From assembly GCA_905235475.1 (NCBI GenBank), contig CAJOLU010000005.1, positions 72,892-136,891 of the forward strand: a stretch of 64,000 nucleotides of DNA. The letters run 5' to 3'. Positions 2,139-26,632 of this stretch are shown piece after piece. The stretch is from an uncultured Clostridia bacterium (GTDB lineage: Bacteria; Bacillota; Clostridia; Christensenellales; UBA1242). The stretch's first letter is position 1. The number at the start of each line of letters is the position of its first letter. The notes beneath the pieces were generated by a model. It did not search any database. It was not told where the DNA came from and worked only from the letters and a program-made list of their open reading frames with translations. Made by a program: the position numbers and the translations under genes.

Positions 2139-2149
2139 AGGAGAAAACT

Positions 2150-2794
2150 ATGAACACACCCAATAAATTGTCACTTCTTAGAATTATTATTGTGCCATTT
2201 ATGATGTTTTTCTATTTAGCAACATTTATTGACCCTTGGGGTAAAATTGTGGCTGTTGCATTATTTATTATTGCCGCTCTAACAGATATGCTTGATGGCA
2301 AAATTGCAAGAAAAACCGGTCAAATAACAGATTTGGGAAAACTGTTGGATCCAATTGCTGATAGACTTTTATATAATATGGGTTTTTTGCTCATTGTTAT
2401 TGATGAAACAATTCCACACCCATATGGAGTGATTTGTTTTGCAATACTTTTGTTTAGAGATTTTATAATAGACGGAATAAGACAAGTTGCTGCAAGCAAA
2501 AATGTTGTTGTTCAAGCCTTTTGGTCAGGAAAGATAAAAGCAATATTGCACGACACACATATTCCAATGTTTATGTTCTATGCTGCAACAAGCACTTTTG
2601 AAGGTGCTTTTTGGAATGTGTTTAACCCAATTTTATTCTGGGTTGCTGTTGCTATTTTGGTTGCTGCTATGATTGTTACAATTTGGTCAATATTTGACTA
2701 TACTTTAAGAACCAAAAGTGTTATTTTTGGAGGCAGCAAAAAACAAGATAAAAAAGAAGAAAAAAACAGTAAAGTAGAAAAAGATGAAAAGTAA
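2150..2794 (+). CDS. pgsA: CDP-diacylglycerol--glycerol-3-phosphate 3-phosphatidyltransferase
   Basis: CDP-alcohol phosphatidyltransferase motif DMLDGKIARKTGQITDLGKLLDPIADR in a multi-TM protein. SD AAAGGAG lies upstream, and the pgsA-cinA-recA synteny is present. Confidence 0.9.
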   Translation: MNTPNKLSLLRIIIVPFMMFFYLATFIDPWGKIVAVALFIIAALTDMLDGKIARKTGQITDLGKLLDPIADRLLYNMGFLLIVIDETIPHPYGVICFAILLFRDFIIDGIRQVAASKNVVVQAFWSGKIKAILHDTHIPMFMFYAATSTFEGAFWNVFNPILFWVAVAILVAAMIVTIWSIFDYTLRTKSVIFGGSKKQDKKEEKNSKVEKDEK

Positions 2795-3857: not shown

Positions 3858-3873
3858 AATGGTATGCTAAAAT
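3845..3873 (+). promoter_or_regulatory. Putative sigma-A promoter of recA (TGGACT-17-TAAAAT)
   Basis: -35 TGGACT at 3845-3850, a 17-nt spacer and -10 TAAAAT at 3868-3873 preceded by TGC. Confidence 0.45.
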
Positions 3874-3874
3874 T

Positions 3875-3888
3875 AGAACAAATGAACG
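3875..3888 (+). promoter_or_regulatory. LexA (Cheo-box-like) operator candidate upstream of recA
   Basis: AGAACAAATGAACG lies directly after the -10. The first 13 nt (AGAACAAATGAAC) recur at 51782-51794 in the recN promoter, and the first half matches the lexA box at 26633. Confidence 0.5.
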
Positions 3889-3906
3889 AAAAGAGGGGAT
3901 TTAATT

Positions 3907-4908
3907 ATGAATGAAACAGATAGAGCAAAAGTGTTGGAGCAAACAATTGCTCAAATAGAAAAACAATTTGGTAAAGGTTCTATTATGAGGCTTGGAGATA
4001 CTGTTAAGGAAAATATTGATGTGTTTTCAACAGGTTGTTTGCCGCTAGACTTAGCACTAGGGATTGGTGGTGTTCCAAGAGGAAGGATTGTTGAGATTTA
4101 TGGTCCAGAAAGTTCTGGTAAAACAACAGTTGCTCTTCATATTTGTGCAGAAGCACAAAAACAAGGTTGTGTGGCAGCATTTATTGACGCAGAACATGCG
4201 TTGGATCCTATTTATGCTCAAAACCTTGGGGTAAAAATTGATGAATTGTTTATTTCTCAACCAGACAACGGAGAACAGGCTCTCGACATTGTTGAAAGTT
4301 TGGTTCGTAGTGGTGGAGTTGATTTGATTATTGTTGACTCTGTTGCTGCTTTAACACCAAAAGCAGAAATTGATGGCGAAATGGGAGATTCTCATGTTGG
4401 CCTTCTTGCAAGACTTATGAGCCAAGCAATGAGAAAGTTAACAGCCATTATCAATAAATCAAACACTTGTGTTGTGTTCATTAACCAATTGCGTGAAAAA
4501 GTTGGTGTGATGTTTGGTAACCCAGAAACAACAACGGGTGGAAAAGCATTAAAGTTCTATTCAAGTGTTAGATTAGATGTTAGAAAAAGTGACACAATTA
4601 AAGATGGAGCAGATGCTATTGGTAGCAGAACAAAAGTTAAAGTTGTTAAAAATAAACTTGCCCCACCATTTAAAACTGCTGAGTTTGACATTATTTATGG
4701 AAAAGGTATTTCAAAAGAGGGCTGTATTCTAGATATTGCAATTGAAAATGATATTGTTCAAAAGAGTGGTGCTTGGTTTGCTTATAATGGAGAAAAAATT
4801 GGACAAGGAAAAGAAAACGCAAAGCAATATTTGGTTGATAATCCTCAAATTTGCGAAGAGATTGAAGCAAAAATACGCGAAATTGTTAAAAATAAGCCTG
4901 TTTTATAA
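3907..4908 (+). CDS. recA: Recombinase RecA
   Basis: Typical RecA sequence throughout: GPESSGKTT Walker [10 protein letters not shown] and [22 protein letters not shown]. Confidence 0.98.
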
Positions 4909-4915
4909 TAAATTG

Positions 4916-4955
4916 GACCTAATAGGAAAATATAACTATTGGGTCTTTTATTTTC
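4916..4955 (+). terminator. Rho-independent terminator after recA
   Basis: 10-bp stem GACCTAATAG / CTATTGGGTC (one G.U pair) followed by TTTTATTTT. Confidence 0.55.
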
Positions 4956-5054
4956 AAATAACGCTTGACTTATGAAAATTTTTAAATTAAAATAATAATG
5001 TATAAAATGAACTTTAAGATTTTTATATATATTTTATAAAGGAGATAGCAGAAT

Positions 5055-6647
5055 ATGAACTCAACAAGTGTTATGATGCTTGGTGTTAGTTCAGTTACCT
5101 TTGTTCTATCTGTTGTTGCGGCTTTAATTTTGGGGGCAGTTGCCACTTTTTTCGTTGTTAAATTAATTAGAAAAAAGAAAGCAGAGAAAGCAAAGCAAGA
5201 GGCTAAATTAATAATTGAAAATGCTGAACAAGATGCTAAAAATATTATTAAAGAAGCAAAACTGACAGCACAAGAAAAAGCATTAGATATAAAAACAGAA
5301 GTTGAAAATGAATTAAATTTACGCAGAGTTGAACTTGAAAAACTTAACGATAGATATCTAAAACGTGAAGAATTCATTAACAACAAAGAAGAAATATTAG
5401 AAAAGAAAACAGAAAATATTGAAACACAAAAGCAAGAACTTGATGCAATGGCTGATAACCTTAAAAAGCAGTTTGAGGGGCTTGAGGTTGAAAAGGGAAA
5501 AATATTAGCTGAACTTGAAAGAGTTTCAAAACTTAGTAGAGATGAAGCAAAAACAATTCTTATGAATAAGATGGAAGATGAAGCAAGGCACGATGCATTA
5601 ATTACCTTAAAAAACATTGAGCAAGAAACAAAAGATAATGCAAACAAAAAAGCAACAGAAATTGTTGCACTTGCAATTCAAAAATACTCTGCCGACATCA
5701 CAAGTGAAAACACTGCAACAACAGTTCTTCTTCCAAACGAAGAAATGAAAGGTCGTTTGATTGGAAGGGAAGGAAGAAACATCAAAGCAATAGAACAAGC
5801 AACTGGTGTTGACCTTATTATTGATGACACACCAGAGGCAATTGTTCTCTCAAGTTTTGACCCAGTGAGAAGAGAGATTGCAAAAATTTCCATTGAAAAA
5901 CTTATGCAAGATGGAAGAATCCACCCAGCAAGAATTGAAGAAACTGTTGCAAAAGTAACAAAAGAAATTGAGCAAGAAATGAAAGATGCTGGTGAGCAGG
6001 CTGTTATAGAGGCTGGAGTTCAAAACATTCATCCTGAACTTGTTAAACTTTTGGGAAGAATGAAATATAGAACCAGTTATGGTCAAAATATGTTAAAACA
6101 CAGTTTGGAAGTATCTTTTATGGCTAGAATGATGGCAGAAGAGTTGGGCGTTGATGCAGAAATTGCAAAAAGAGGGGGTCTTCTCCACGATATTGGAAAA
6201 GCAATAGACCACGAGGTTGAGGGAACCCATGTTTCAATTGGTGTTGATCTTGCCAAAAAATATAAAGAAAATAGCAAGGTTATTAACTGTATTGAAGCAC
6301 ATCATGGAGATGTTGAATTTTCTTGCATTGAAGCAGTTCTTGTTCAAGCAGCCGATGTTATTTCTTCAAGCCGTTATGGCGCAAGACGTGAAACAATGGA
6401 AAGTTACATCAAGCGTGTTGAAAAACTTGAAGAAATCTCTAACTCATTTGATGGTGTTGAAAAGGCATATGCTATTCAAGCAGGAAGAGAAGTTAGAATT
6501 ATTGTAAAGCCAGAAGAAATAGATGATGCAAAAGCAATGTTCTTGGCAAAAGATATCGCTAAAAAGATTGAAAGCGAAATGGAATATCCTGGACAAATTA
6601 AAGTTCATGTTATTCGTGAAACAAGAAATGTTGAATATGCAAAATAA
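5055..6647 (+). CDS. rny: Ribonuclease Y
   Basis: N-terminal TM segment, coiled coil, KH domain ([15 protein letters not shown]) and HD domain (LLHDIGKA...HH). Position downstream of recA matches Bacillus. Confidence 0.95.
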
Positions 6648-6688
6648 AAAAGGTTATAAGAGCAAGCCATTTTGAAACTGGCAAAATA

Positions 6689-6720
6689 AAAGAACCTAAA
6701 TTCAAATTAGGTTCTTTTTA
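6689..6720 (+). terminator. Rho-independent terminator after rny
   Basis: Stem AAGAACCTAA / TTAGGTTCTT followed by a T-run. Confidence 0.75.
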
Positions 6721-6772
6721 TATTAGTTTCAAACAACATAAAGTAACACACACTCTCTTGTTTGTGTGAGTA

Positions 6773-6801
6773 TTGACATTTTTCGCTGGTTATGCTATAA
6801 T
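6773..6801 (+). promoter_or_regulatory. Consensus sigma-A promoter (TTGACA-17-TGcTATAAT) for the repeat-protein gene
   Basis: Perfect -35 TTGACA at 6773-6778, a 17-nt spacer, an extended -10 TG and a perfect TATAAT at 6796-6801. Confidence 0.7.
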
Positions 6802-6833
6802 ATACTCAACAAAAAGGTTAGGGGTGAAAAATT

Positions 6834-7547
6834 ATGTTAATGAAAAAAGATAAACAACTTAAATTGACTAAGGAAGATTTTGAAAAATTGATGAAATATG
6901 TGGAAACACACGGCAAAGATGAAAAATTTGATGCTATTCAGCAAATTATAGCAAAAAGAGGAAATGTTGCACAAATTTATAAATTTGCTAAAATAGAAGG
7001 AGCAGATATTGAGGTTCTTTCCCAAGCGATGGCAGAAGAAGCATGTCAACAACTTAGGTATATTAATCATAAACTTATTAAGTCAAACCACCGTTTCTCA
7101 AGATATAACTCGAACGACTTATACAGTACGGTAGGTAACATATATAGGCTTATCTACCGATTTGCTAAAGATATAGAAGGAGCAGATATTGAGGTTCTTT
7201 CTCAAGCGGTTGCAAAAACAAAAGTACCCGATTTTATCTTCGAAGTTGCTAAAATAGAAGGAGCAGATATTGAGGTTCTTTCCCAAGCGATGGCAGAAAC
7301 AAAACATGCACGTCTTATCGAAGAATTTGCTAAAGACATACAAGGGGCAGACATTGCTGTTCTTACCGAGGGGATGGCAAAAACAAAGAATCCTGAGCTT
7401 ATTCTCAGTTTTGCTAGAGAGATAAAAGGAGCCGACATAGCAGTCCTTACCAAGGCGATGGCAAAAACAAAGAATCCTGTGCTTATTCTCAGTTTTGCTA
7501 GAGAGATAAAAGGAGCCGACATGGCAGTCCTTACCAATTCGACTTAA
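6834..7547 (+). CDS. 28-aa tandem-repeat protein, 5' portion of a gene interrupted by an insertion
   Basis: SD AGGGGTGA precedes the start. There are six units of the motif FA(K/R)xIxGADIxVLxxAMAKTKNPxLIxx. The sixth unit is cut at 7537, and the ORF then ends after 3 foreign codons (NST*). Confidence 0.75.
   Translation: MLMKKDKQLKLTKEDFEKLMKYVETHGKDEKFDAIQQIIAKRGNVAQIYKFAKIEGADIEVLSQAMAEEACQQLRYINHKLIKSNHRFSRYNSNDLYSTVGNIYRLIYRFAKDIEGADIEVLSQAVAKTKVPDFIFEVAKIEGADIEVLSQAMAETKHARLIEEFAKDIQGADIAVLTEGMAKTKNPELILSFAREIKGADIAVLTKAMAKTKNPVLILSFAREIKGADMAVLTNST
6984..7537 (+). repeat. Coding tandem repeat, 81-84-bp units R1-R6
   Basis: Units start at 6984, 7161, 7245, 7326, 7410 and 7494. R5 and R6 are almost identical. 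R1 carries a divergent ~41-codon spacer. Confidence 0.9.
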
Positions 7548-7652
7548 AGATTTTGTATGGTTTAATATACTATATATTGTGTTTTAAAATTTATATTTTA
7601 CAATATGTTGTGTGCGTTTTGTGAAATATAATTTTTTTTATTCATTATTTTT

Positions 7653-7748
7653 CAAATTTTGTACTTTTTTTCACACCAAATTTTGTACTTTTTTTGTACT
7701 TTCTATCGGCAAATTAGATTTTTCTATTTTCAAATTTTGTACTTTTTT
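7653..7748 (+). repeat. Three direct copies of CAAATTTTGTACTTTTTT in the left arm of the island
   Basis: Copies lie at 7653-7670, 7677-7694 and 7731-7748, with an extra GTACTTT at 7696-7702. Confidence 0.85.
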
Positions 7749-7846
7749 GTGTTTGCATTATTTTTTGGCAAATATTTTTAAAAACAATTTAAAGACAAAA
7801 ATTTTAACTTATGATATAATTATGGTGATAGAAAAGTGAGGTAATT

Positions 7847-8317
7847 ATGAAATACTTTGTGTCTTCAGATATTCACGGATTTTTTGATGAGTGGATGCTT
7901 GCTTTGAAAAATAGTAATTTTGATATAAACAATCCAGAACATAAAATTATTGTTTGTGGTGATTTGTTTGATAGGGGCAGGCAACCAAAACAAATTATAG
8001 ATTTCATTTTATCTCATAGAGATAAAATAACAGTCATTCGTGGTAACCACGAAGATTTGATGCAAGCAATGATTGATAGAAATAAAAATAATTCAATGGA
8101 TCTGTCTAATGGAACAGCGCAAACAATTGTGGATTTATGTCCAGAGTGGTTAATTAGCAAGTTTGATTTAACAGAGATAGCAAAAGAAACAGGACTTCAA
8201 GAGGTGCTAGATTTATGTGTTGATTATTTTGAAACTAACAAAGTAAAAGATTTAACGATTTTGGGTTGGATTATTTTTAATTTGAAAATTTTTAAATATA
8301 AAAAATTAAAGTTCTGA
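7847..8317 (+). CDS. Metallophosphoesterase (PPP-type Ser/Thr phosphatase-like), probably C-terminally truncated
   Basis: Motifs DIHG, GDLFDRG and GNHE are present. Similarity stops after DYFETNK, where the expected H-containing C-terminal motifs are replaced by a short unrelated tail. Confidence 0.55.
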   Translation: MKYFVSSDIHGFFDEWMLALKNSNFDINNPEHKIIVCGDLFDRGRQPKQIIDFILSHRDKITVIRGNHEDLMQAMIDRNKNNSMDLSNGTAQTIVDLCPEWLISKFDLTEIAKETGLQEVLDLCVDYFETNKVKDLTILGWIIFNLKIFKYKKLKF

Positions 8318-8360
8318 AAAATGAAAAATAATCTTATAACTTTATTTTTTGCAAAAATGC

Positions 8361-8389
8361 TTGACTTTCTTATTCTTCTTGTATATATT
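8361..8389 (+). promoter_or_regulatory. Putative sigma-A promoter of the island operon (TTGACT-17-TATATT)
   Basis: -35 at 8361-8366 and -10 at 8384-8389. The first ATG (8397) lies about 8 nt after the -10 with no SD, so the transcript may be leaderless. Confidence 0.45.
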
Positions 8390-8396
8390 AAAATCA

Positions 8397-9647
8397 ATGA
8401 AAGATTTGATAAAAGTTCTTTTGGTTAGTCCACCCTACAAAGAAAAACAATTACATAAACAAGTTGCTGATTGGGATTTTATAAATGGAGTAAAATATAT
8501 GAATCCTGGTCTTTTAATTACTGCTTCTATACTGGATCAAAACAATATTGAAAATAAAATTATAAAAGTTGACCGCTTGGAGGATATGAGTTGTATTGAT
8601 AAAGAACTTGATTTTTATGGCGATCTTTTGGTTGGCGTTAGTTGTACGTCAGCATGGGAATATCTTGAAGCACTTAGTATATTAGATTATGTGAAAGATA
8701 AGAGAAAAGATGTAACAACATATATTGCAGGTTGGCAAATAAAAAGTATTGGCACAAAGGTTTTTGATGACAGTAAGGCTGTTGATTTTGCTATTTTATC
8801 TGACGCTGAAACAACAACAATGAATTTACTTAATAATTTCAAAAATCTAAATTATCATGATATTGGGATTGTTTCAAGACAAAATAGAGTTATAAAAAAT
8901 GGTAAAACTGATTTTAATTTTCAGGTTATTGATTTTTCAAAATATCCAAATTACAACGATTATATTCCTTTTGTTGAGGATAGCAGAAATTGTCCATATA
9001 GGTGTAATTTTTGTCTTAATTCAGTTGTAAAGGAACGTTATAGAAATGTTCCGCTCGATGTAATAAAAAAGAATATAGAAAATATTGAAAAATTGTATGG
9101 ACCAGAAACTGAAGTAAATTTTTTATCAGCAAATTTTGGAGTGAATGCTCAAAGAACTTTGGAACTTTTAGATTACTTAAATGAGAAAAGGCTAAAGTGG
9201 AATTTTGAGTTTCATGTAGACAATCCTTGGGAAAAATATATAGACAAAATAAAGCTTGCAAATTTAAAAAAATGTAGTATAGGGTTTGAATCAGCAAACA
9301 TATCAACTCTTCAAGCGATGAATAAAACAAGAAATCCAGAAAATTATTTAAAGCGTTTTGATTTGTTAATAAACAAGTTAAACGAAATGGGGATTAAACC
9401 TAGCATAAATGTTTTATACTATCCGTCAGACACGGAGCAATCCATAAAAGATACAAACGACTTTTTAAAAAAGTATGAAGGGAAGTATAGAAAAATAAGA
9501 AAGAATTTTACTATTGGATTTGAAGGGGTTTTAAAAAATTTTGATGGATATAAAACTGAAGAAAATGACTATTTTAAAAAAATTCATGCAAAACCAATTT
9601 GTCCAAAAGGTATGAGTATGAAAGAAACTTTGGATTTGTGTAAATAA
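8397..9647 (+). CDS. Radical SAM enzyme with an N-terminal B12-binding-like domain
   Basis: CxxxCxxC cluster motif CPYRCNFC and an N-terminal IKVLLVSPPY Rossmann-like start typical of class B radical SAM proteins. Start moved to the ATG at 8397, because the TTG at 8349 lies inside the promoter. Confidence 0.75.
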   Translation: MKDLIKVLLVSPPYKEKQLHKQVADWDFINGVKYMNPGLLITASILDQNNIENKIIKVDRLEDMSCIDKELDFYGDLLVGVSCTSAWEYLEALSILDYVKDKRKDVTTYIAGWQIKSIGTKVFDDSKAVDFAILSDAETTTMNLLNNFKNLNYHDIGIVSRQNRVIKNGKTDFNFQVIDFSKYPNYNDYIPFVEDSRNCPYRCNFCLNSVVKERYRNVPLDVIKKNIENIEKLYGPETEVNFLSANFGVNAQRTLELLDYLNEKRLKWNFEFHVDNPWEKYIDKIKLANLKKCSIGFESANISTLQAMNKTRNPENYLKRFDLLINKLNEMGIKPSINVLYYPSDTEQSIKDTNDFLKKYEGKYRKIRKNFTIGFEGVLKNFDGYKTEENDYFKKIHAKPICPKGMSMKETLDLCK

Positions 9648-9671
9648 AAAATTTGTATGAGGATGTAAAAA

Positions 9672-10379
9672 ATGAAATTATCAAAAAAAAACAATTTCAG
9701 CTTTAAAAAAAGATTAAAAAGATTTTTTATAAGGTACAGGGGAAAATATTATGCACAAAATGGTGAAGATATAGTGGTTTGGCAATATTTAAAAAATATA
9801 AAAAACATCCGTGATGTAACATATCTAGATATTGGGTGTGGAGATTGTAAATTTCTTAGCAATACATATTTGTTATATACAATGGGTGCAAGTGGATATG
9901 TCTGTGATGCAAATCAAAATTATGAGAAAAAATATAAAAGGTTAAGACCTAGAGATAAATTTTTGAATTATCTTATAACAAACTCATTAAATCAAAACAA
10001 AAAATTTTTTATAACGGATATGAGAGAACTTAGCACTTGTGATGAAACAAAAATCAAATATTTAACAGAAAATGGATTTAAAATTAAAAGTGAAAAAAAT
10101 GTTCCAACAAAAACACTTAATGAAGTTTGGGGTGAAGTCACAAAGGAAAAAGAAATAGATTTTTTATCATTAGATATTGAATCAGATGAAATCAATCTTT
10201 TGGAAAATCTTGATATGACAAATCATAAACCGATAGTGATTTGTGTTGAAGTTGTTGATTTTGAAACAGGAGAAAACTCATCAAAGACAGAATCGTTTAT
10301 TGAATATATGAAAAAGAAAAATTTCAAAGTTCTTTTGAACACAAAAGTAAATATAATTTTTGTTAGAGAGGGGGGATAA
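9672..10379 (+). CDS. FkbM-family SAM-dependent methyltransferase
   Basis: YAQNGEDIVVWQYL and the glycine-rich LDIGCGDCKF SAM motif, with a size typical of Methyltransf_21 proteins. Confidence 0.6.
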   Translation: MKLSKKNNFSFKKRLKRFFIRYRGKYYAQNGEDIVVWQYLKNIKNIRDVTYLDIGCGDCKFLSNTYLLYTMGASGYVCDANQNYEKKYKRLRPRDKFLNYLITNSLNQNKKFFITDMRELSTCDETKIKYLTENGFKIKSEKNVPTKTLNEVWGEVTKEKEIDFLSLDIESDEINLLENLDMTNHKPIVICVEVVDFETGENSSKTESFIEYMKKKNFKVLLNTKVNIIFVREGG

Positions 10380-10381
10380 AA

Positions 10382-11977
10382 ATGAAAAAAAATTATTTAA
10401 TTATTGGATGTGGACAAATAGGAAAATCTGTTTTAAGTAAAGTTCTAAATAGAGATGATGTTGGAAAGATAATTATTCATAATTTAACAAGTGAGGAAAA
10501 TAAAACCATACAAAAAGTATGTAAAGATGAAAATATTATTTATAGTTATGGAAATATATTTTTCCCAACAAAATATTGTCAAAAAGAAGATTTTAACAAT
10601 GAAGAACTTGAGCAACTCATAAAATATTTTTATGAAGAAAGCGATGAAAATGTAATAAAACAATCAAAACTTTATGAGCTTGTTGAAAAATATAATCCAG
10701 AGGTGATTGTTGATACTATAAATACGGCAACAATTTTTGGAAATAATTTTAAACCTGAAAATACTTTTAAACTATATTTAGAAGATAGTAAAAGGTGTTG
10801 TAAAGAGTTGATGATGGGTGAGTTTGTTACAAAATTTGAAAAATTTATTTCCACTTTAAAGTATTGTATTGAAAATATGGGTGTAAAAAAATATATAAAA
10901 GTTTCAACAACTGGTTTAGGGGGAATGGGTCTTAATATGCCGTATACTCATGGCGACAACCCTAAATCCACATTATCAAATGCTTTAATAGGAAAGATTT
11001 CTGCAAGTGGAACATTTCACCAACTTTTGTGGAATTTATCTCACATACCGAATTTTGATATTGCACTAATTATACCAGCAACTTTTGTGGGTTATGATTT
11101 CTTTGAAAATGGTTTTGTGGAAACGAATATAGGGAATGTATTAGAACAATCAAAATACAATGATTATGACCTAAATAAAACAAAAAAACTATTGTTTAGT
11201 GAAAAAACTGATGAAAAATATATAAAATTTCCAGTAGTAAGAGCGGGAGAAAATCATGTTTATTCAATTAATGAATTAAAAGTTTTGACATCAATTGGCC
11301 AAATGGAGGCGATAACAAAAGAGGAAGTGTCAAATGCTGTCCTGAAAGAGATTGATGGGAAATCAACTTCAAATATTTTGCTTGCACTTGATAAATATGC
11401 GTTAGCTCCAACATATGCTGGAAGAAAAATGATTGAAGAAATACTTGAAAAAAATAAACACACTCCACAAACATATGGAGTTGCAACAGGAAATTTGGGT
11501 GTAAGTTGTGCAAAGCATCTTTATGAACTTTGGTTTGTTAAAAGAATTTACCCAACATTAGAAGATATTTTTAATAAGCAAATTTCTGATGAAAACATCA
11601 ATGTGGCAATCAATAAAATTCTTTTGAGTGACAAAGAAATTATAAAAGAAATTATATCATTAGGAATGCCAGTATTGTATGGAGATAATCAAATAATTTT
11701 AGGTTCATATAGCTTGGTTCCAGAAACTATAAACAATGAAGAATTAACATTATCTGAAATAGAGAATTTTAGTAAAATCGGTTGGGTTGACTTAAGGGCA
11801 AATTCAATCAAAAGTTGGAAGAAAGATATATGTGAAACTATGAAATATTTGCAAGACAAAAAATATTATTTTGATAATTTTGATATTTATTATAACAAAT
11901 TGGTGTTAAATGATTATGATATAGCGGAAATTTTGGGACTTATATATAATAACAAAAATAAACATAGAATAAAATAA
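10382..11977 (+). CDS. NAD(P)-binding Rossmann-fold protein of unknown function
   Basis: N-terminal YLIIGCGQIGKSV dinucleotide-binding motif. The remaining ~480 aa are not recognisable. A strong SD (GAGGGGGGA) lies 2 nt after the preceding stop. Confidence 0.5.
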   Translation: MKKNYLIIGCGQIGKSVLSKVLNRDDVGKIIIHNLTSEENKTIQKVCKDENIIYSYGNIFFPTKYCQKEDFNNEELEQLIKYFYEESDENVIKQSKLYELVEKYNPEVIVDTINTATIFGNNFKPENTFKLYLEDSKRCCKELMMGEFVTKFEKFISTLKYCIENMGVKKYIKVSTTGLGGMGLNMPYTHGDNPKSTLSNALIGKISASGTFHQLLWNLSHIPNFDIALIIPATFVGYDFFENGFVETNIGNVLEQSKYNDYDLNKTKKLLFSEKTDEKYIKFPVVRAGENHVYSINELKVLTSIGQMEAITKEEVSNAVLKEIDGKSTSNILLALDKYALAPTYAGRKMIEEILEKNKHTPQTYGVATGNLGVSCAKHLYELWFVKRIYPTLEDIFNKQISDENINVAINKILLSDKEIIKEIISLGMPVLYGDNQIILGSYSLVPETINNEELTLSEIENFSKIGWVDLRANSIKSWKKDICETMKYLQDKKYYFDNFDIYYNKLVLNDYDIAEILGLIYNNKNKHRIK

Positions 11978-11990
11978 AAGGAACAAAAAA

Positions 11991-13094
11991 ATGAAAAAAT
12001 TACCAGTATATGTTACGGGAGATAGGCCAACAGGAAAATTGCATCTTGGTCATCTTGTCGGGAGTTTGAGAAAAAGAGTTGAAATGCAAAACTCAGGAAA
12101 GTACGATTGTTATGTCTTTATCGCAGACATGCAAGCACTAACAGACAATGCGAAAAATCCAGAAAAAATACGAAAAAATGTGCTTGAAGTTGCTTTGGAT
12201 TATTTGTCGGTTGGAGTTGATCCTAAAAAAAGTACAATATTTTTACAATCACAAGTGCCACAACTTTGTGAACTTACATTTATATATTTAAATTTGGTAA
12301 CAGTTTCAAGGTTGGAGCGTAATCCGACAGTAAAAAATGAAATAAAAGAAAAAGGTTTTAAAACAAACATACCAGCAGGATTTTTGGTTTATCCAGTAAG
12401 TCAAGCAGCAGATACAACAGCATTTTTAGCGAATTATATTCCAACAGGGGAAGATCAACTTCCTGTCACTGAGCAAGGTAGAGAAATTGTTCGAACTTTT
12501 AATAGTATTTATGGTGATGTCCTAGTTGAAGCTGAAGGTGTTTTGGCAGACTCTGATAAATGCTATAGACTTCCAGGGATTGATGGAAAAGGGAAGATGA
12601 GCAAATCGCTTGGTAATGCTATATATCTTTCTGATGATACTGAAACAGTGAGGAAAAAAGTTTTTGACATGTATACAGATCCAGAGCATATAACAGTTGA
12701 TATGCCTGGTCATGTAAAAGGCAATATTGTATTTACATATTTGGATGCTTTTGCTACGCCAGAGTCCTTTAAAAAGTTTTTGCCTAACGATAATTATACA
12801 TGTTTAGATGATATGAAAAAGCATTATGAGAAGGGCGGGCTTGGTGATGTTAAAATAAAGAAATTTCTTTTTGATATAATTGAGGATATTTTGCAACCAA
12901 TTAGAGAAAAAAGAAGATATTATGAACAAAATATTGATGAAGTAATTCAAATTTTAAAAGATGGTAGTGAACAGGCAAGAATAGTTGCATCTCAAACTGT
13001 TAAAAAAGTAAGAAAGGCAATGGGGATTGAATATTTTGAAGATGATGCCCTGATTGAATATTATAAAAATAAATTTCACGAAAATGGAGAGTAA
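11991..13094 (+). CDS. trpS: Tryptophan--tRNA ligase (class Ic)
   Basis: HIGH motif GKLHLGH, FIADMQALTDN, GEDQ and KMSKS (GKMSKSLGNAI). No T-box leader; the gene is embedded in the operon. Confidence 0.85.
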   Translation: MKKLPVYVTGDRPTGKLHLGHLVGSLRKRVEMQNSGKYDCYVFIADMQALTDNAKNPEKIRKNVLEVALDYLSVGVDPKKSTIFLQSQVPQLCELTFIYLNLVTVSRLERNPTVKNEIKEKGFKTNIPAGFLVYPVSQAADTTAFLANYIPTGEDQLPVTEQGREIVRTFNSIYGDVLVEAEGVLADSDKCYRLPGIDGKGKMSKSLGNAIYLSDDTETVRKKVFDMYTDPEHITVDMPGHVKGNIVFTYLDAFATPESFKKFLPNDNYTCLDDMKKHYEKGGLGDVKIKKFLFDIIEDILQPIREKRRYYEQNIDEVIQILKDGSEQARIVASQTVKKVRKAMGIEYFEDDALIEYYKNKFHENGE

Positions 13095-13096
13095 TC

Positions 13097-14815
13097 ATGA
13101 GAATTTATGGAAATGGTGGATTTGGGAAAAAGGCTGAAATGTTATATTTGCTGAAGAAAACTTTTCCACATCTTGCTGATTTTATTCCTAAATCGTATAT
13201 TATAGATTCAAGTGTTTTTGATCAAATAATGGCAAAAAACAACAAAGATGAAATAAAAACTTGTGAGGATATTCAAATTGATGATGAACTTTTAAATAAA
13301 GTTTATGGTGAAGTTATTAGTTATTTTAAAGATGCGCCATTAGTTTTTAGAAGTTCAGCATTTATAGAAGATACAGTTTTATTTAGTGCTTCCGGTCAAT
13401 ATAAAACTTGTGTTAACATAAAAAATAAAAATGAAGCAAAACTTGCATTACAGAAAATTTATTTTTCAATGCTTAACCGAAATGCGAAAATTTACGAGGA
13501 CTCATTTAATCTTGCTTCAGGAATAAATAAAATGTCTATTTTGGTTCAGGAGCTTATGATTGTTGATATGGCTGGAGTTTTGTTTTCTGTTAATCCAATA
13601 AATGGTGAGCATGAAACAATAATTGAATACGAAAAAGGAAATGGTGTGAATATTGTTGCTGGTTCAGCACCAGCGGTGGAAAGAATTGTTATAAAAAATG
13701 ATAATATATCAAAATCTTTGCCGGATTTTAAAAAGCTTTATGAAATATCAAAAGAGATAAAAGATTTTTTAGGATATGAAATTGATTTTGAATGGGGAAT
13801 AAAAGATGGAAAAATATATATTTTTCAGGTAAGGCCTTGCAAAATCTCTCTAAAAAAGACTGAATTTACTGATTATGAATGTGATGAAATTATTCCATGT
13901 GAAGTGTTTTCTCGAGGATATGCTATTGGCAAGATTAATTCCAGGGATAAGCTTGAGGACTACAATATTATAGGGGATATTAGAAAATTTGAAGCAGATA
14001 ATATTGAATTAATTCAAAAATCTTCTGGCTTGATTGTGAATGTGGGTGGATATTTATCTCATATCGCAAATATCTGTAGAGAGTTTGAAAAAGTTTTTGT
14101 CCGATGTGAAAAAGAATTTAAACAAGGTGAAATTGTTTTTATAGATGGTTTTAAAGGTCAAATTATGCCTTTAAAAAGCATAAAGAAAAACTTTGCGAAA
14201 GTTTTTTGGGATACTTTTTTATATCAAGCTAGGCAAATAAATAGTTTATCCATAAAATCAAACGGCATAATTTCAGCAAATTATGAACATGTTTGGGAAA
14301 TTGTATTTTTTGATTTTGATGAAGAAAAACTAATTTCGAAGCTGAAGGAGAAGGGTTTTTGCTGTAAGGAGCAAGTTAAAAAATATCAAACGTATGATTA
14401 TGAGAATAAAGATTTAATAAAAGAAAACATGGAATTTCGAATATCGCAAACAAATGAAGAAACCGTAATACAGCTTAAATCATTTAATACCTCAGAAACA
14501 ACAAATTTTAGATTTGACAGAAGTATGAAGCTCTATTTTCAGAACGAAAAATATGCAAAAAAATATATGAAAAATTTAGGTGTTATACAAACCGGAACCT
14601 TTGAAAGACATGAGAAACTTTTTCAAAGTCCGACAAATGACGTCCTGGTTAAATTCTTGAAATGGTCTGGTAAAAATGTTTATATTGGAATTGAATCAAA
14701 TAATATTTCAAATATACAGCATTTTATGAGTGAGTTTGGGTTAAGTGTTGACAACTCAGACAATATTGGTGGTGTTGAAATATTTAAAAAATTAAATATA
14801 AATTTTGTGGAGTGA
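13097..14815 (+). CDS. PEP-synthase/PPDK-like phosphotransferase (ATP-grasp plus phosphohistidine swivel) fused to a CYTH-like C-terminal domain
   Basis: PPDK_N-like GGFGKKAEMLYLL and FRSSAFIEDT..FSASGQYKT. The swivel-domain motif is GGYLSHIANICREF. The C-terminal ~200 aa show an alternating charged beta-strand pattern (EIVFFDFDE ... NVYIGIESN) reminiscent of CYTH. Confidence 0.6.
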   Translation: MRIYGNGGFGKKAEMLYLLKKTFPHLADFIPKSYIIDSSVFDQIMAKNNKDEIKTCEDIQIDDELLNKVYGEVISYFKDAPLVFRSSAFIEDTVLFSASGQYKTCVNIKNKNEAKLALQKIYFSMLNRNAKIYEDSFNLASGINKMSILVQELMIVDMAGVLFSVNPINGEHETIIEYEKGNGVNIVAGSAPAVERIVIKNDNISKSLPDFKKLYEISKEIKDFLGYEIDFEWGIKDGKIYIFQVRPCKISLKKTEFTDYECDEIIPCEVFSRGYAIGKINSRDKLEDYNIIGDIRKFEADNIELIQKSSGLIVNVGGYLSHIANICREFEKVFVRCEKEFKQGEIVFIDGFKGQIMPLKSIKKNFAKVFWDTFLYQARQINSLSIKSNGIISANYEHVWEIVFFDFDEEKLISKLKEKGFCCKEQVKKYQTYDYENKDLIKENMEFRISQTNEETVIQLKSFNTSETTNFRFDRSMKLYFQNEKYAKKYMKNLGVIQTGTFERHEKLFQSPTNDVLVKFLKWSGKNVYIGIESNNISNIQHFMSEFGLSVDNSDNIGGVEIFKKLNINFVE

Positions 14816-14821
14816 TAATTT

Positions 14822-15574
14822 ATGAAAAGAAAAGTTGTTATTTTAACAGATTGTATTGATGTTGCCTTTAACGAGATAAGGGGGGCAATATTTCAAAATG
14901 CATCAAATGATGAATTTGAAATTGAGCCAGTAGTAAAGGTTGATTCTTACAATATAGAAAATGTAAATTTTTTAGTTAAGTTGGTGGCAGAAATTTACCC
15001 AGAAGGAACTGTGATCTGCGTTATTGTGAATCCCTTAAAAATTAGAACAGAGAGAATAGTTGGAAGAACAAAAAAGAAAAATTTAATTTTTGAGGGAACA
15101 AACACTGGAGCATTTGATTGGCTCATCAAGGATTTTGGATGTAGTGAACTTTATGAGCTTTTTGATCCTGGATTTGTTCCTTTTGGTGGAAAATATGTCC
15201 ATGCGCCAGCTGTTGGAAAACTATTAAGTGGGAAAAAGTTAAGTGAACTTGGGAATATTTTTCCACTTGAAAAAGTAAGAAAGGTTGATATGGAAGAAAG
15301 CTGTATTTTGCATATTGACAACTTTGGAAACTTAAAGCTAAATCATAAATTAAAAGAGCATAATGAAGGTGACTTTTTAGAGGTGTTCATAAATAACAAA
15401 AAAATGACAATGAAATATGCTAAAAGAATGATGGCACTTGATGATGGTGAAATAATAATTTATCCAGGAAGTTCGTTTGGACTTACTGAAATTGGTATTG
15501 TTCGCGGAAATTTTGCTGAAACATTTGGCGTACAATATGGAGACAAGATAAAAATTAAGGAGTCTATTAAATGA
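14822..15574 (+). CDS. SAM hydroxide adenosyltransferase family protein (DUF62; fluorinase/chlorinase-like)
   Basis: N-terminal VVILTDCIDVAFNEIRG and C-terminal HIDNFGNLKLN match the family pattern LxTDFG...xxDxFGNxxTN. Confidence 0.6.
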   Translation: MKRKVVILTDCIDVAFNEIRGAIFQNASNDEFEIEPVVKVDSYNIENVNFLVKLVAEIYPEGTVICVIVNPLKIRTERIVGRTKKKNLIFEGTNTGAFDWLIKDFGCSELYELFDPGFVPFGGKYVHAPAVGKLLSGKKLSELGNIFPLEKVRKVDMEESCILHIDNFGNLKLNHKLKEHNEGDFLEVFINNKKMTMKYAKRMMALDDGEIIIYPGSSFGLTEIGIVRGNFAETFGVQYGDKIKIKESIK

Positions 15575-16530
15575 AGGATGTTATGATTACTGGAGCGAGA
15601 CCAACTGGTGCTTTGCATTGGGGACATTATATTAGTGTTTTTAAGAATTTATCTAAGCTACAAAATGATTTCAATACATTTTTTGTGGTTTCAGATGTTC
15701 ATTTTTTAACCACTAAAACAACACCTGATCAAATAAAAATGATAAAACCAAATACAATAAAAATGATTCTTGACTTAATTGCTATTGGGATGGATCCTAT
15801 CAATACAACTTTTTATCTTCAATCAAAAGCCCCATCTCATGGTAATATTTATTATCTGATACAAAATTTTATAGATTCACAAATGCTTTATAATCCGAGC
15901 ATTATTGAAATGGAAAAACATTCAAAAACAAAACCATCTTTAGGACTTTTGGCTTATTCAGTTCTTGAAAGTGCTGATATTTTGGGGATTGGAGCAAAAA
16001 AGGTTCCTGTTGGATTTGATAATATAGAGCATGTAAATATAACAAATAAAATTATTGACAAAATAAATACTACTTTTGGTTCGGACATTCAAAAACCAGA
16101 AGCGATAATATCTGCTGAGACAACAAAACTTATTGGAACGGATGGTTATGAAAAAATGAGTAAAAGTTTGGGTAATTCCATAAATATCGGTGATTCAAGG
16201 GAAATACTTGTTAAAAAGATAAGAGAAATGAAATGGAATGATGATGAAAATCATAATGCTCTTTTGCAATATACAAAACTTTTTGATTTAAATAAATATC
16301 AGATATTTAGAGAAAAAGGTAGAGATGCAACAAAAGAAATAAAAGATTTTTTAATTGAAAATTTTTCAAAAGAAAATTATAAGTTTGAAAATCGTGTTGC
16401 ACCGTATAAAGAAGATGAGAATTTAATAATTGAACTTTTGAAAAAGGGAAGCGAAATTGCTGAACAGAGATATTTAAAAATGTTTCAGAATTTGAAAAAT
16501 ATATTAGGAATGTGGGATTTAACTAAATAA
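15571..16530 (+). CDS. Divergent TrpRS-like class I aminoacyl-tRNA ligase paralogue
   Basis: GARPTGALHWGHY (HIGH changed to HWGH), VSDVHFLT, GFDN in place of GEDQ, and an intact KMSKS. It overlaps the preceding gene by 4 nt (ATGA). Confidence 0.7.
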   Translation: MKDVMITGARPTGALHWGHYISVFKNLSKLQNDFNTFFVVSDVHFLTTKTTPDQIKMIKPNTIKMILDLIAIGMDPINTTFYLQSKAPSHGNIYYLIQNFIDSQMLYNPSIIEMEKHSKTKPSLGLLAYSVLESADILGIGAKKVPVGFDNIEHVNITNKIIDKINTTFGSDIQKPEAIISAETTKLIGTDGYEKMSKSLGNSINIGDSREILVKKIREMKWNDDENHNALLQYTKLFDLNKYQIFREKGRDATKEIKDFLIENFSKENYKFENRVAPYKEDENLIIELLKKGSEIAEQRYLKMFQNLKNILGMWDLTK

Positions 16531-16593
16531 AAATGAGTAAAAACAAGAGGTATTAAATTATTTTTAAGTTTTGTCATTTTATGGTGAAAATGA

Positions 16594-17118
16594 ATAAAAG
16601 ATAATTATGAACTCATCAATGTTGCTGTAACTAGAGCAAAAACAAAATTGGTTATTGCTGCAGATTGTGAATGCGTTGATAAACTCTCAGATAAGAAAGA
16701 TAATTTATATAATTTGGTTCAATATACAAAAAATAATGGTAATATTGTCGTTTCAGCGAATGAATCAATTAAGATTGAGATAGGTAAGTCAAACGGAAGT
16801 GCTTATGAAGATGAATTTTTTAAAACAGTTTCTCATTTCTGTTCTTGCCATAAAACTTTTGAAGCAGAACGAAATGTTAAGATTTCAAAACTATTTAAAA
16901 ATGAAAATATAAATAGCAATATGGAATTCGATTTAGTCATATATGAAAAAGTTTTATTTAGAAAAAAACCAGTAATAGTTTTTGAAATTTATGGCTGAGA
17001 ATATTTTGGAACTTTGCCTAGAGAAATGTCTGATAGAAGGAAGATGGGGATATGTAAAAACAATGGAGTGAAACTTATTTTTTCCCAAACAATTTTGTTA
17101 AGGCGTATGAATATATAG
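16594..17118 (+). pseudogene. Remnant of an SF1 helicase C-terminus plus an endonuclease-like (DUF559/Vsr-like) domain
   Basis: Begins mid-gene with helicase motif VI ELINVAVTRAKTKLVIA and has no N-terminal helicase core. An in-frame TGA at 16996 (FEIYG*EYFG) breaks the C-terminal domain. Confidence 0.6.
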
Positions 17119-17193
17119 CAGATATAATTCTATCATCTAAAGATAAGAACAAAAGTATTCAGCAATCAATGTTTGATGATGAAATAATATAAA

Positions 17194-17223
17194 AAATCAC
17201 CCATAAAATAGGGTGATTTTTTG
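17194..17223 (+). terminator. Rho-independent terminator at the right end of the island
   Basis: Stem ATCACCC / GGGTGAT followed by TTTTTT. Confidence 0.7.
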
Positions 17224-17229
17224 TTCATT

Positions 17230-17274
17230 TGGAGCTACTGATGGGAATCGGACCCATGACCCCCACCTTACCAA
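17230..17274 (-). other. 3' half of a tRNA-Thr(GGT), from anticodon loop to CCA (att-site remnant)
   Basis: The reverse complement reads TTGGTAA GGTGG GGGTC ATGGG TCCGATT CCCAT CAGTAGC T CCA: anticodon loop, 3' stem, variable loop, T arm, acceptor strand and CCA. No D arm or 5' acceptor strand follows. Confidence 0.7.
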
Positions 17275-17452
17275 GGCGATGGCAAAAACAAAGAATAAAG
17301 ATTGTCTAAATGAGATAAAATTTATTAATGACAATTATTTAAAAAATGAATTGCCAGCAGATGTTGATGATATAATAGCAACTGCAAAAGTTCGAAAGGT
17401 AGCATCAAAAGAAGCGCAACAATCAACGAAAAATCCAACACTAAAAAGATAA
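17266..17452 (+). pseudogene. 3' portion of the interrupted repeat-protein gene
   Basis: Encodes LTKAMAKTKN, completing repeat R6, followed by a unique 50-aa tail. Nt 17266-17296 are 31/31 identical to 7445-7475. The track ORF 17213-17452 is a read-through from the tRNA fragment. Confidence 0.75.
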
Positions 17453-17513
17453 TGAATTAAATGTGATTTTGCGAAAATAATAACTAATTTTTATTTTTAT
17501 CATATATAATTTT

Positions 17514-18332
17514 ATGTTAAAAATTTGTGACGCACATAATGATTTGTTATATAAATATAAAACAAAACAAAATATTCAAAAGTATATAAATAAATTGCCA
17601 CAAAACATAGAAAAAATATTTTGTGCCTACTTTTCATATAACAACAGCAGTGCTAGTGTTTTTGATATGAAGAAAAAGTTTTCATATCTTTTGAGTGAAA
17701 AGTGTGTTAGAACAATTGAAAATGCTTGGTTCATTAATAAAGAAAATTTTATGAGCATTATAGAAAATGATGTGTTTTGCGCAACCCTTTGTCACAACAA
17801 AAATAATGCTTTATGTGGTGGGGCAGAAGATAATGGAGAAATAACTCAACTTGGCAATTTTATAATTCAAAAATTAGAAAAGAATAATGTTATAGTTGAC
17901 ACAGCGCATATGAACGAGAAATCTTTTTGGCAATTTGTTCATTTAACTCAAAAGCCAATATTTAATTCTCATAGCGGTTTTTATTCAATTTTTTCACATA
18001 ATAGAAACTTAAAAACAAGTCAAATAAACGAAATTGTGAGTAGCGGTGGTTATATTGGATTGGCAATGTATCCAAAGTTTTTTACAAATAATTCATATGG
18101 AATTGGTGACATTGCTAAAAATATAATATGGTTTTGGGAAAACTTTGGAACAAACACTCTTGGGTTTGGAACAGATTTTAATGGAATTAACAACTATCCC
18201 ACTAATTTGCATAACTATTTTGATTTATTGACGCTTGCACAAAAATTAATTGAATTTGGTGCAAATAGGGAAGACATTAATAAACTCTTTAGCGAGAATT
18301 TACTGGAATTTTATAAAAAAATAAAAGCCTAG
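17514..18332 (+). CDS. Membrane dipeptidase (peptidase M19 family)
   Basis: N-terminal CDAHNDL metal-binding motif, then DTAHM, FNSHS and FGTDFNG. Confidence 0.7.
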   Translation: MLKICDAHNDLLYKYKTKQNIQKYINKLPQNIEKIFCAYFSYNNSSASVFDMKKKFSYLLSEKCVRTIENAWFINKENFMSIIENDVFCATLCHNKNNALCGGAEDNGEITQLGNFIIQKLEKNNVIVDTAHMNEKSFWQFVHLTQKPIFNSHSGFYSIFSHNRNLKTSQINEIVSSGGYIGLAMYPKFFTNNSYGIGDIAKNIIWFWENFGTNTLGFGTDFNGINNYPTNLHNYFDLLTLAQKLIEFGANREDINKLFSENLLEFYKKIKA

Positions 18333-18348
18333 TGTTAGGCTTTTATTC
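18322..18348. terminator. Bidirectional hairpin between convergent genes
   Basis: Stem AAAGCCTA / TAGGCTTT with an A-run on the left and a T-run on the right. It overlaps both stop codons. Confidence 0.55.
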
Positions 18349-18600
18349 TTCAACCGTGACATCTTCATCATCATAAACATAACCTTCTTGTCTTAAAGCA
18401 TCTTTGGTTGAGGTTGGGTCACTTATTATTTTTGTGGACTGTTCTAGTTCACTTTCTTTTAGGGCTAGTTCGTTATTGGCGTTTCTATTGTTGGTTCTCA
18501 AAACACTTAGTGCAATAAATTGAGCAAGGAGAATAACGAGCAAAAATATTGCAACGCATAATATTAATATAAATCTTGATTTCGATAAATTTTTATACAT
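18343..18600 (-). CDS. Septum formation initiator family protein (FtsB/DivIC-like)
   Basis: Single N-terminal TM segment, a short coiled coil, and a C-terminal ALRQEGYVYDDEDV similar to the family ending. Confidence 0.5.
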   Translation of the reverse strand: MYKNLSKSRFILILCVAIFLLVILLAQFIALSVLRTNNRNANNELALKESELEQSTKIISDPTSTKDALRQEGYVYDDEDVTVEE

Positions 18601-18603
18601 ATA

Positions 18604-19047
18604 TTAAACTCCTTGTCTATTTTCAATTTCTCTCCTTGCTAAACTGTCGCAAATGTTGTTATATTTGTCTGTTGAATGACCTTTAACTTTATTAAATGTT
18701 ATGTTGTGAATTTTTGTATATTCAATTAGTTTTTGCCATAAATCAATGTTTTTAACATCTTTTTTGCCAGCAGTTCTCCAGTTTCTCATTTGCCAATCTT
18801 CAATCCAGTTTTGTTGAAAGGCATTAACAACATATGCTGAATCGCTATATAACATAACATTACAAGGTTCTTTTAGTTCGTCTAATGCTTTAATAACAGC
18901 CATCAGTTCCATTCTGTTGTTAGTTGTGTTGTCTTCAAAACCACTTAACTGTTTTTCTTTGCCATTATATATCAAAACAGCACCCCAGCCACCTGGACCA
19001 GGATTGAAACTGCAAGCGCCATCTGTGTATATTTCAACAGTTTTCAT
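18604..19047 (-). CDS. rnhA: Ribonuclease HI
   Basis: IYTDGAC..NPGPGGWG, NNRMEL, YSDSAYV and KVKGHS...N..D.LA catalytic DEDD pattern. Confidence 0.92.
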   Translation of the reverse strand: MKTVEIYTDGACSFNPGPGGWGAVLIYNGKEKQLSGFEDNTTNNRMELMAVIKALDELKEPCNVMLYSDSAYVVNAFQQNWIEDWQMRNWRTAGKKDVKNIDLWQKLIEYTKIHNITFNKVKGHSTDKYNNICDSLARREIENRQGV

Positions 19048-19123
19048 TTTTTCTCCCTAATTTAATTTTTCACTTATATTATAATAATTTTTTTACTTTT
19101 TGGCAACAACTTTTATTATTCTA

Positions 19124-19152
19124 TTGACTATTTTTTAAAATTTTTATATAAT
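19124..19152 (+). promoter_or_regulatory. Sigma-A promoter for tRNA-Trp (TTGACT-17-TATAAT)
   Basis: -35 at 19124-19129 and -10 at 19147-19152, about 10 nt upstream of the tRNA 5' end. Confidence 0.65.
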
Positions 19153-19162
19153 AGAAGAATAT

Positions 19163-19236
19163 AGGGGAGTGGCTTAACGGTAGAGTAGTGGTCTCCAAAA
19201 CCATTGGTCAGAGTTCGATTCTCTGCTCCCCTGCCA
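19163..19236 (+). tRNA. tRNA-Trp (anticodon CCA)
   Basis: Cloverleaf readable by eye: acceptor AGGGGAG/CTCCCCT, anticodon loop CTCCAAA, T arm AGAGTTCGATTCTCT, and an encoded CCA. Confidence 0.9.
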
Positions 19237-19242
19237 AGCAAT

Positions 19243-19265
19243 AAACCCATAAATAAAGGGTTTTC
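19243..19265 (+). terminator. Terminator after tRNA-Trp
   Basis: Stem AAACCC / GGGTTT followed by a T-run. Confidence 0.5.
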
Positions 19266-19303
19266 GAGGTATTTTTGATTTTTGCAAAAATGCCTCTTTT
19301 TTT
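19266..19303 (+). terminator. Second, stronger terminator after tRNA-Trp
   Basis: 11-bp stem GAGGTATTTTT / AAAAATGCCTC (one mismatch) followed by TTTTTTT. Confidence 0.6.
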
Positions 19304-19344
19304 ATATTTTAACCCCAAAAGTGTTGTCAGAGGTGTTGTCAACA

Positions 19345-19375
19345 TTAAAAAAGAACATATTTATCAATATGTTCT
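19345..19375 (-). terminator. Terminator of the ABC transporter operon
   Basis: Stem AGAACATAT / ATATGTTCT, with the T-run on the minus strand. Confidence 0.6.
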
Positions 19376-19395
19376 TTTCAATATGTTCTTTAATT

Positions 19396-21315: not shown

Positions 21316-21319
21316 ATTT

Positions 21320-22258: not shown

Positions 22259-22411
22259 AGTTACTCCTATTTTAAACTATAAATTATTATAGTATATTTT
22301 TCAGATAAAGTAAATAATTTTTTCAAAAATGTGAAAATATTACGCAAAAAAATCAAAAAAATTTTAATTTTTATTAAAAAAATAGCAAATTTAACTCAAA
22401 AATGGTCAAAT

Positions 22412-22436
22412 AAAAAAAGAGAAGACAATCTCTTTT
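22412..22436 (-). terminator. Terminator after the PadR-like gene
   Basis: Stem AAAGAGA / TCTCTTT flanked by A- and T-runs. Confidence 0.55.
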
Positions 22437-22442
22437 ATTTTT

Positions 22443-26622: not shown

Positions 26623-26632
26623 TAAAAATATT

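Follow-up and report, generated by a model that had tools for sequence, protein, structure and literature searches.

An integrase-less island bearing a tRNA-Thr(GGU) 3' half, probably inserted at a secondary site within a repeat-protein gene of an uncultured Clostridia bacterium

We analysed a stretch of 64,000 nt from an uncultured Clostridia bacterium (assembly GCA_905235475.1, contig CAJOLU010000005.1, positions 72,892 to 136,891), referred to below as the window, in which a gene for a repeat protein is split by a segment of 9.7 kb. In our reading, to which we give a probability of roughly 80%, this segment (7538-17265) is a genomic island of a family that normally targets the anticodon loop of tRNA-Thr(GGU) and that has here entered a secondary site inside the repeat-protein gene. 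The observations that carry this reading are the two junctions, the identity of the tRNA-Thr fragment at the right end, the same island arm sitting on a real tRNA-Thr 3' half elsewhere, and an island without a recombinase gene. In its present form the island is unable to move by itself.

The split gene sits between rny and a gene for an M19 dipeptidase. The features at its junctions are listed here; names beginning with L and P are our labels for other DNA records and for proteins.

6834-7537, plus strand: repeat-protein gene, 5' part, with 234 native codons; the present open reading frame (ORF) extends to the TAA at 7545-7547, and protein P0001 is identical (237 aa)
7529-7537, no strand: left core copy CCTTACCAA, the arm-side junction, equal to attR in tRNA orientation; the homology of L016 stops exactly here
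17191-17222, no strand: terminator-like hairpin and T-run directly after the tRNA fragment, like the terminator following tRNA-Thr in L012
17230-17274, minus strand: island-borne tRNA-Thr(GGU) 3' half, from anticodon loop to CCA
17266-17274, no strand: right core copy CCTTACCAA, whose minus strand is the anticodon loop plus two stem bases
17275-17452, plus strand: repeat-protein gene, 3' part, comprising the end of repeat 6 and a unique tail, with the stop codon at 17450-17452

The ORF at 6834-7547 encodes 237 aa arranged as six repeats of about 28 aa with the pattern FAK/R-x-I-x-GAD-I-x-V-L-x-x-A-M-A (elsewhere given as FAK/R-x-I-x-GAD-I-x-x-L); at the DNA level, Tandem Repeats Finder (TRF) reports an 84-nt unit present in 4.7 copies at 7149-7537. 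The protein terminates in ...VLT-N-S-T-stop. The original prediction had the frame ending after three foreign codons, and a stop does follow after three codons, although precisely these are one hybrid and two foreign codons before the TAA. Its other statements about the junctions were reproduced. The 9-bp direct repeat at 7529-7537 and 17266-17274 is present and exact, the bases 17266-17296 match 7445-7475 at 31 of 31 positions, and the 22 bases past the right core copy are the exact continuation of the coding repeat. Joining 7537 to 17275 (6834-7537 plus 17275-17452) yields 882 nt in frame, a single ORF of 293 aa that ends in ...KR and the stop. Within the 64-kb window the core 9-mer CCTTACCAA is confined to position 7445 in repeat five, position 7529 where repeat six ends, and position 17266; in shuffled sequence its mean count was 0.59, and three or more matches were reached in 2/100 shuffles. 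The host is left with a shortened repeat protein and, past a terminator-like hairpin, a 3' tail that is silent.

The two gene pieces could instead be remnants of two separate paralogues, with the island replacing the DNA that once lay between them. An internally repetitive gene makes phase-preserving joins easy, and the tail has no homology support of its own. We nevertheless consider this very unlikely: joining the pieces makes a repeat unit whole again, with its right part the same, base for base, as in the unit before, there is exactly one core at each end, as a single reciprocal crossover predicts, and the homologues are single genes of 239-340 aa. These remote homologues (P0002, with 278 aa, and others) are uninterrupted and consist of a head, the repeats and a short tail.

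What identifies the inserted DNA is its right end. On the minus strand, 17274-17230 reads TTGGTAA GGTGG GGGTC ATGGG TCCGATT CCCAT CAGTAGC T CCA, which corresponds in order to an anticodon loop (anticodon GGT), the 3' strand of the anticodon stem, the variable loop, the T arm, the 3' strand of the acceptor stem, the discriminator base and CCA. Reverse-complemented, the core CCTTACCAA gives the anticodon loop of tRNA-Thr(GGU) (TTGGTAA) together with two stem bases (GG). Because the half-tRNA scores only 13 bits when Rfam is run on the right junction, which is too weak to decide, its identity was established by its match to real tRNA genes. A scan for the T-arm and acceptor pattern in one genome per species (185,579 species genomes) matched four uncultured Clostridia metagenome-assembled genomes, and ARAGORN predicts a complete tRNA-Thr(GGT) at each of the four matches. 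From the first base of the anticodon loop to the CCA, the fragment is identical at 45/45 positions to the tRNA-Thr(GGU) genes of L012 and L014, and its likeness to L012 extends past the tRNA half into the hairpin terminator (84% over 88 nt). Over the window, ARAGORN finds only a tRNA-Trp; there is no intact or regenerated tRNA-Thr at either end of the island, and on each side of it lies one half of a protein gene.

The reconstructed gene site and the tRNA gene have CCTTACCAAGG (11 bp) in common, that is, the 7-nt loop and two stem pairs on each side; in the repeat protein, the Thr codon ACC of the L-T-K motif is the complement of the GGT anticodon. By our own estimate, an 11-mer is expected by chance about once per genome of a few Mb, so the gene site is plausible as a secondary site. 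The fifth repeat (7445-7455) keeps an intact copy of this 11-bp pseudo-site in direct orientation with both island cores, so that an integrase working at the cores could also cause deletions or rearrangements between these copies.

In L012 (2566-2607) and in L035, intact tRNA-Thr genes are closely preceded by orphan tRNA-Thr 5' halves that end at the TTGGTAAG(G) core, and L035 has an isolated CCTTACCAAG as well (positions in L035 around 11110-11160 and around 11215). They look like scars of repeated recombination at the anticodon loop.

In the mechanism that we propose, a circular form of the island would carry the junction ...GGGTCATGACCCCCACCTTACCAA directly followed by TTCGACTTAAAG..., which would act as attP and comprise the tRNA 3' half, the core and the arm; the reconstructed circular junction would read ...GGACCCATGACCCCCACCTTACCAATTCGACTTAAAGATTTTG.... 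One conservative reciprocal crossover between this attP and the look-alike site CCTTACCAAGG in the sixth repeat would leave one core at each end, place the tRNA 3' half inside the right end and split a gene whose empty site is reconstructed as ...GACATGGCAGTCCTTACCAAGGCGATGGCAAAAACAAAGAATAAAGATTGTC.... After such an insertion, the 5' part of the gene would stop three codons past the join and the 3' tail would lie behind the terminator-like hairpin. The presumed catalyst is a tyrosine integrase specific for tRNA-Thr, by analogy with Islander class A islands. It may have acted in trans, the situation of cis-mobilizable elements (CIMEs), or have been lost later, when an operon rich in tryptophanyl-tRNA synthetase (TrpRS) genes replaced the interior.

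An attP that holds a tRNA half leads to a prediction, namely that somewhere else the island's minus-strand end ...CAAAATCTTTAAGTCGAA should meet the 3' half of a host tRNA-Thr across the same core, giving the arm-core-tRNA junction TTTAAGTCGAATTGGTAAGGTGG. This 23-mer is absent from the window and has one match in 241 million metagenome records, the contig L016 (Ga0247611_10025434). Positions 2-523 of L016 align with window 8049-7529 at 96.2% identity (522 nt), spanning part of a metallophosphoesterase gene, the arm with its three 18-mers and the core. The contig leaves the window at the first base of the anticodon loop. From there it tracks L012 at 89% over 241 nt, through the tRNA 3' half, the terminator and some 200 nt of the flank downstream. 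The tRNA half of L016 represents another allele, in which the T and acceptor stems carry paired changes. Both L012 and L014 have an intact tRNA-Thr and no metallophosphoesterase gene nearby. Judged from the sequences, the same arm joined at the same base to two different partners is what we take as the signature of a site-specific element.

Further along L016, a PD-(D/E)XK gene (760-1851) lies between two copies (647-754 and 1916-2060) of the sequence found behind tRNA-Thr in L012. This arrangement suggests a small cassette inserted in the post-tRNA flank.

These data bear on the nature of the 9-mer, for which the original prediction had left two options, a crossover core or a target duplication. 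The first is borne out by the tRNA anticodon loop and by the use of the same base in L016; the second fails, as the 9-mer travels with the arm. A length of 9 bp is common for target-site duplications, and the segment is flanked by 9-bp direct repeats, as expected if it were a transposon. We find a transposon hardly credible: there is no transposase and the ends lack terminal inverted repeats, another 36 bases of tRNA sequence adjoin the right 9-mer without a break, and the left end in L016 joins a tRNA half through the same 9-mer, which must therefore belong to the element and not to the target.

Illegitimate entry of circular or linear DNA through microhomology, independent of any recombinase and with an incidental overlap with the anticodon loop, would explain why the island has no recombinase gene and why the shared stretch is only 9-11 bp long. 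It would not explain why the junction falls at exactly the base at which the arm in L016 meets a real tRNA-Thr 3' half, nor why both junctions are conservative, neither having gained or lost a base. The orphan tRNA-Thr halves of L012 and L035 end at the same core, which points to a site-specific crossover point that is used repeatedly. We therefore regard illegitimate recombination as unlikely and prefer site-specific insertion of a tRNA-Thr-targeting island.

The foreign origin of the intervening DNA, as originally predicted, is also visible in its composition. The insert (7538-17265) has a GC content of 28.2%, compared with 32.4% for the rest of the window, and lies below all 148 windows of the same size elsewhere (minimum 29.0%). 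Its tetranucleotide L1 distance of 0.26 is the largest, against 0.09-0.13 for typical windows elsewhere and up to 0.23 for the segment directly to the right. The comparison of GC and k-mers with the flanks thus agrees with the tRNA half and the L016 arm junction in marking the segment as an insertion. The region 17265-27000 is, as a whole, compositionally atypical.

Could the arrangement be an assembly chimera produced by the repeats? The source is a metagenome-assembled genome with a 31-nt exact repeat at the right junction, Logan contigs break at that junction and within the repeats, and the European Nucleotide Archive (ENA) assembly ERZ1667847 (k87) breaks inside the island, at 9419-9505. 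That same assembly nevertheless contains both junctions, each spanned by one of two overlapping contigs (L003, window 1-9505; L001, window 9419-28332), and at the left junction the longest repeat is 9 bp. A chimera would neither put matching cores on both ends, one with a tRNA half and the other with an arm, nor repeat the L016 boundary, and we consider it extremely improbable. The ENA break, with a contig overlap of 87 nt, lies inside a radical-SAM gene (SAM, S-adenosylmethionine) and may be due to differences between strains or to low coverage in this part of the assembly, inside the island.

The content of the island, whose genes all lie on the plus strand, is as follows.

7538-7846, no strand: island arm, AT-rich and non-coding; 96% identical in L016 and 96.5% in L025
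7653, 7677 and 7731, no strand: three exact copies of the 18-mer CAAATTTTGTACTTTTTT in the arm, candidate arm-type or operator sites
7792-7820, no strand: promoter-like site in the arm
7847-8317, plus strand: truncated metallophosphoesterase gene; homology to 240-aa relatives stops at residue ~140, near 8272
8349-9647, plus strand: gene resembling B12-binding-type radical SAM methyltransferases, start codon uncertain
9672-10379, plus strand: FkbM-family methyltransferase
10382-11977, plus strand: PF27054 (Beta_methylindole_red_C) protein, 531 aa
11991-13094, plus strand: TrpRS paralogue, above the NCBIfam trpS cut-off; best solved relative Deinococcus TrpRS II, E 2e-107
13097-14815, plus strand: PPDK_N / phosphoenolpyruvate (PEP)-utilizer ATP-dependent enzyme; best NCBIfam model PigC, far below cut-off
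14822-15574, plus strand: SAM hydroxide adenosyltransferase-family protein with SAM_HAT_N and SAM_HAT_C domains
15571-16530, plus strand: second TrpRS-like gene, 319 aa; 168 bits against the trpS cut-off of 176.75, with HIGH-like and KMSKS motifs in the translation
16594-17190, plus strand: probable remnant of a helicase C-terminus and a PD-(D/E)XK-like domain, broken by a stop codon and by changes of frame

Both backbone genes, the metallophosphoesterase and the helicase/PD-(D/E)XK remnant, are fragments. The remnant is assigned from weak matches, to positions 174-194 of the 195 of AAA_12 (E 0.012) and to PDDEXK_3 (E 0.022). A public gene call for the metallophosphoesterase (193 aa; L003 12793-13374) reads through the TGA at 8315-8317, probably as an artefact of the genetic code that the gene caller chose, because the core genes are intact under table 11. 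The arm had no match in phage and plasmid collections by blastn, and a scan of a viral contig collection with its 18-mer gave only single chance matches.

Several results weigh against the proposal of a tRNA-Thr-targeting island at a secondary site. Searches of all ORFs of at least 70 aa with Pfam and NCBIfam found no integrase or excisionase in the island; transposase and transfer genes are absent too. The stretches of the island that have no assignment, of 309 nt and about 700 nt, are too short for a recombinase. The only tyrosine recombinase of the window is Xer-like (25579-26622), and the host tRNA-Thr locus falls outside the 64 kb. The L016 contig stops inside the metallophosphoesterase gene, so that the cargo and integrase content of its element are not visible. 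No circular junction was found in the scans, and the scans of the viral contig collection matched neither the tRNA fragment nor the predicted junction. As to the split gene, the C-terminal tail alone has no significant similarity to the homologues, including in a separate test against P0002. The empty-site search with the joined ORF that was originally proposed came back empty: no intact 293-aa version is present among 5.8 billion proteins, and the sole high-identity match is the truncated 237-aa allele. Nor was an empty site found at the DNA level, as exact look-ups of the flanking genes gave only filled arrangements, from one or two samples. Close relatives of the species are unavailable, since the 90% cluster of its RNase Y has a single member; the species is known from few contigs and is rare in public data. 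Finally, the nearest relative elsewhere of the 531-aa cargo protein is only 49% identical.

The Xer-like gene was considered as the acting integrase; it stands beside lexA (26706-27338), 8 kb from the island, and is not a convincing candidate. Upstream of it, at 24585-25578, lies about 1 kb of non-coding DNA with 21-25% GC. Elsewhere in the window, at 41939-42151 on the minus strand, a T-box leader (113.5 bits) precedes pheS (40879-41901) and pheT (38469-40868).

Relatives of the island's parts occur in two kinds of setting. The metallophosphoesterase has hundreds of 240-aa relatives at island borders and tRNA hot spots, together with ArdA/PcfJ and defence-type genes, a setting shared by relatives of the arm. 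In L021 and L037 it follows tRNA-Arg(CCT) and is itself followed by ArdA, nSTAND and HNH genes; in L035 its neighbours are ArdA/PcfJ genes on one side and tRNA-Thr(GGT) on the other, and an orphan 5' half of tRNA-Thr is present; and in L025 it lies behind the same arm, with a 3-kb gene inserted. L021 also has tRNA-Arg 5'-half fragments (~9480-9700 and 9897-9975) upstream of the intact tRNA-Arg(CCT), and downstream of it a frameshifted metallophosphoesterase gene and a defence-like island (ArdA, nSTAND NTPase, HNH, FokI-like). Positions 1-33 of L025 compare with window 7515-7548 as the same arm (96.5%) with a different flank. Since this homology begins 11 nt inside the end of the window island, the arms of the family appear to be mosaic or to use more than one core.

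The cargo, on the other hand, belongs to a cassette of the order PF27054 - TrpRS - PPDK_N - SAM_HAT - TrpRS - B12 radical SAM that is kept in many Clostridia at no more than 49% identity. Elsewhere the cassette is chromosomal, directly after a RelA/SpoT-type (RelA/SpoT-TGS) gene and with no tRNA or integrase nearby (e.g. L017 8892-17644 and L020 10001-17558). Some versions have a third TrpRS; compared with those of other Clostridia, the window version (8349-16530) has the radical-SAM gene at the front and an added FkbM methyltransferase. A protein-based scan of genome contigs with the 572-aa cargo enzyme gave no match, and a literature search found no description of the operon. We infer that the window island is a decayed member of its family, the interior of which, probably with the integrase, was replaced by this operon.

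If the island is what we propose, it offers a natural case, resolved to the base, of a tRNA-targeting island that used a secondary site within a coding sequence, and the logic of the tRNA fragment can account for insertions that have no tRNA gene beside them. Island finders that need an intact tRNA or an integrase would miss it. The anticodon loop of tRNA-Thr(GGU) emerges as a much-used site of recombination in uncultured Clostridia of a group about which little is known; a widespread, uncharacterised operon with two or three TrpRS paralogues is flagged as well.

As to what that operon makes, the closest comparison is the indolmycin pathway, in which Ind0 is a TrpRS, Ind2 a reductase and Ind3 an ATP-dependent coupling enzyme (PMC8246080). 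The cargo likewise has a PF27054 protein (Ind2-like), a PPDK_N enzyme (Ind3-like), methyltransferases and extra TrpRS genes. We took the full Ind1-Ind7 set with a resistant TrpRS as defining an indolmycin-type cluster; the cargo lacks counterparts of Ind4, Ind5 and Ind6, no pyridoxal 5'-phosphate (PLP)-dependent oxidase or imine reductase was found in it, and SAM_HAT and B12 radical-SAM enzymes are present instead. It is possible, although we hold it to be doubtful, that the island is a mobile non-autonomous carrier of an uncharacterised pathway for a TrpRS inhibitor, either Trp-derived or resembling tryptophanyl-adenylate, together with its own resistant enzyme of the TrpRS II type. If so, rumen and gut Clostridia would exchange an inhibitor pathway through tRNA-Thr attachment sites and their look-alikes, and an operon that is chromosomal in other Clostridia would have been captured between att sites and moved.

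With respect to its ends, the island compares most directly with those in Islander, where anticodon-centred attP sites and island-borne 3' tDNA fragments form the commonest class (PMC4383910). As in Islander class A, it bears a 3' tDNA fragment that extends from the anticodon loop as far as the 3' end of the tRNA, each end holds a copy of the core, and the relative in L016 has the canonical junction between an arm and a displaced tRNA half. Unlike class A islands, the window copy is not in a tRNA gene, has regenerated no tRNA and has no integrase gene.

Phage lambda has secondary attachment sites. Secondary use of attB is also documented for Salmonella genomic island 1 (SGI1), at sodB-purR (PMC2297512). 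The likeness to these two systems is that of a site-specific element at a site having only the core in common with the primary attB; the difference is that the secondary site in the window appears to lie inside a coding repeat, so that the gene would be inactivated.

CIMEs are elements that keep attL and attR and have no integration genes (PMC6323972). The window island resembles them in its two intact core copies, its lack of int/xis and transfer genes and its decayed backbone genes. It differs in that the window has no helper element, accretion or tandem array, and its mobilisation is a deduction; the genes typical of integrative and conjugative elements (ArdA and PcfJ) beside the metallophosphoesterase relatives in L035 are context only. 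The process is of a known kind, and what it has produced here is an integrase-less tRNA-targeting island at a secondary site that carries an uncharacterised operon.

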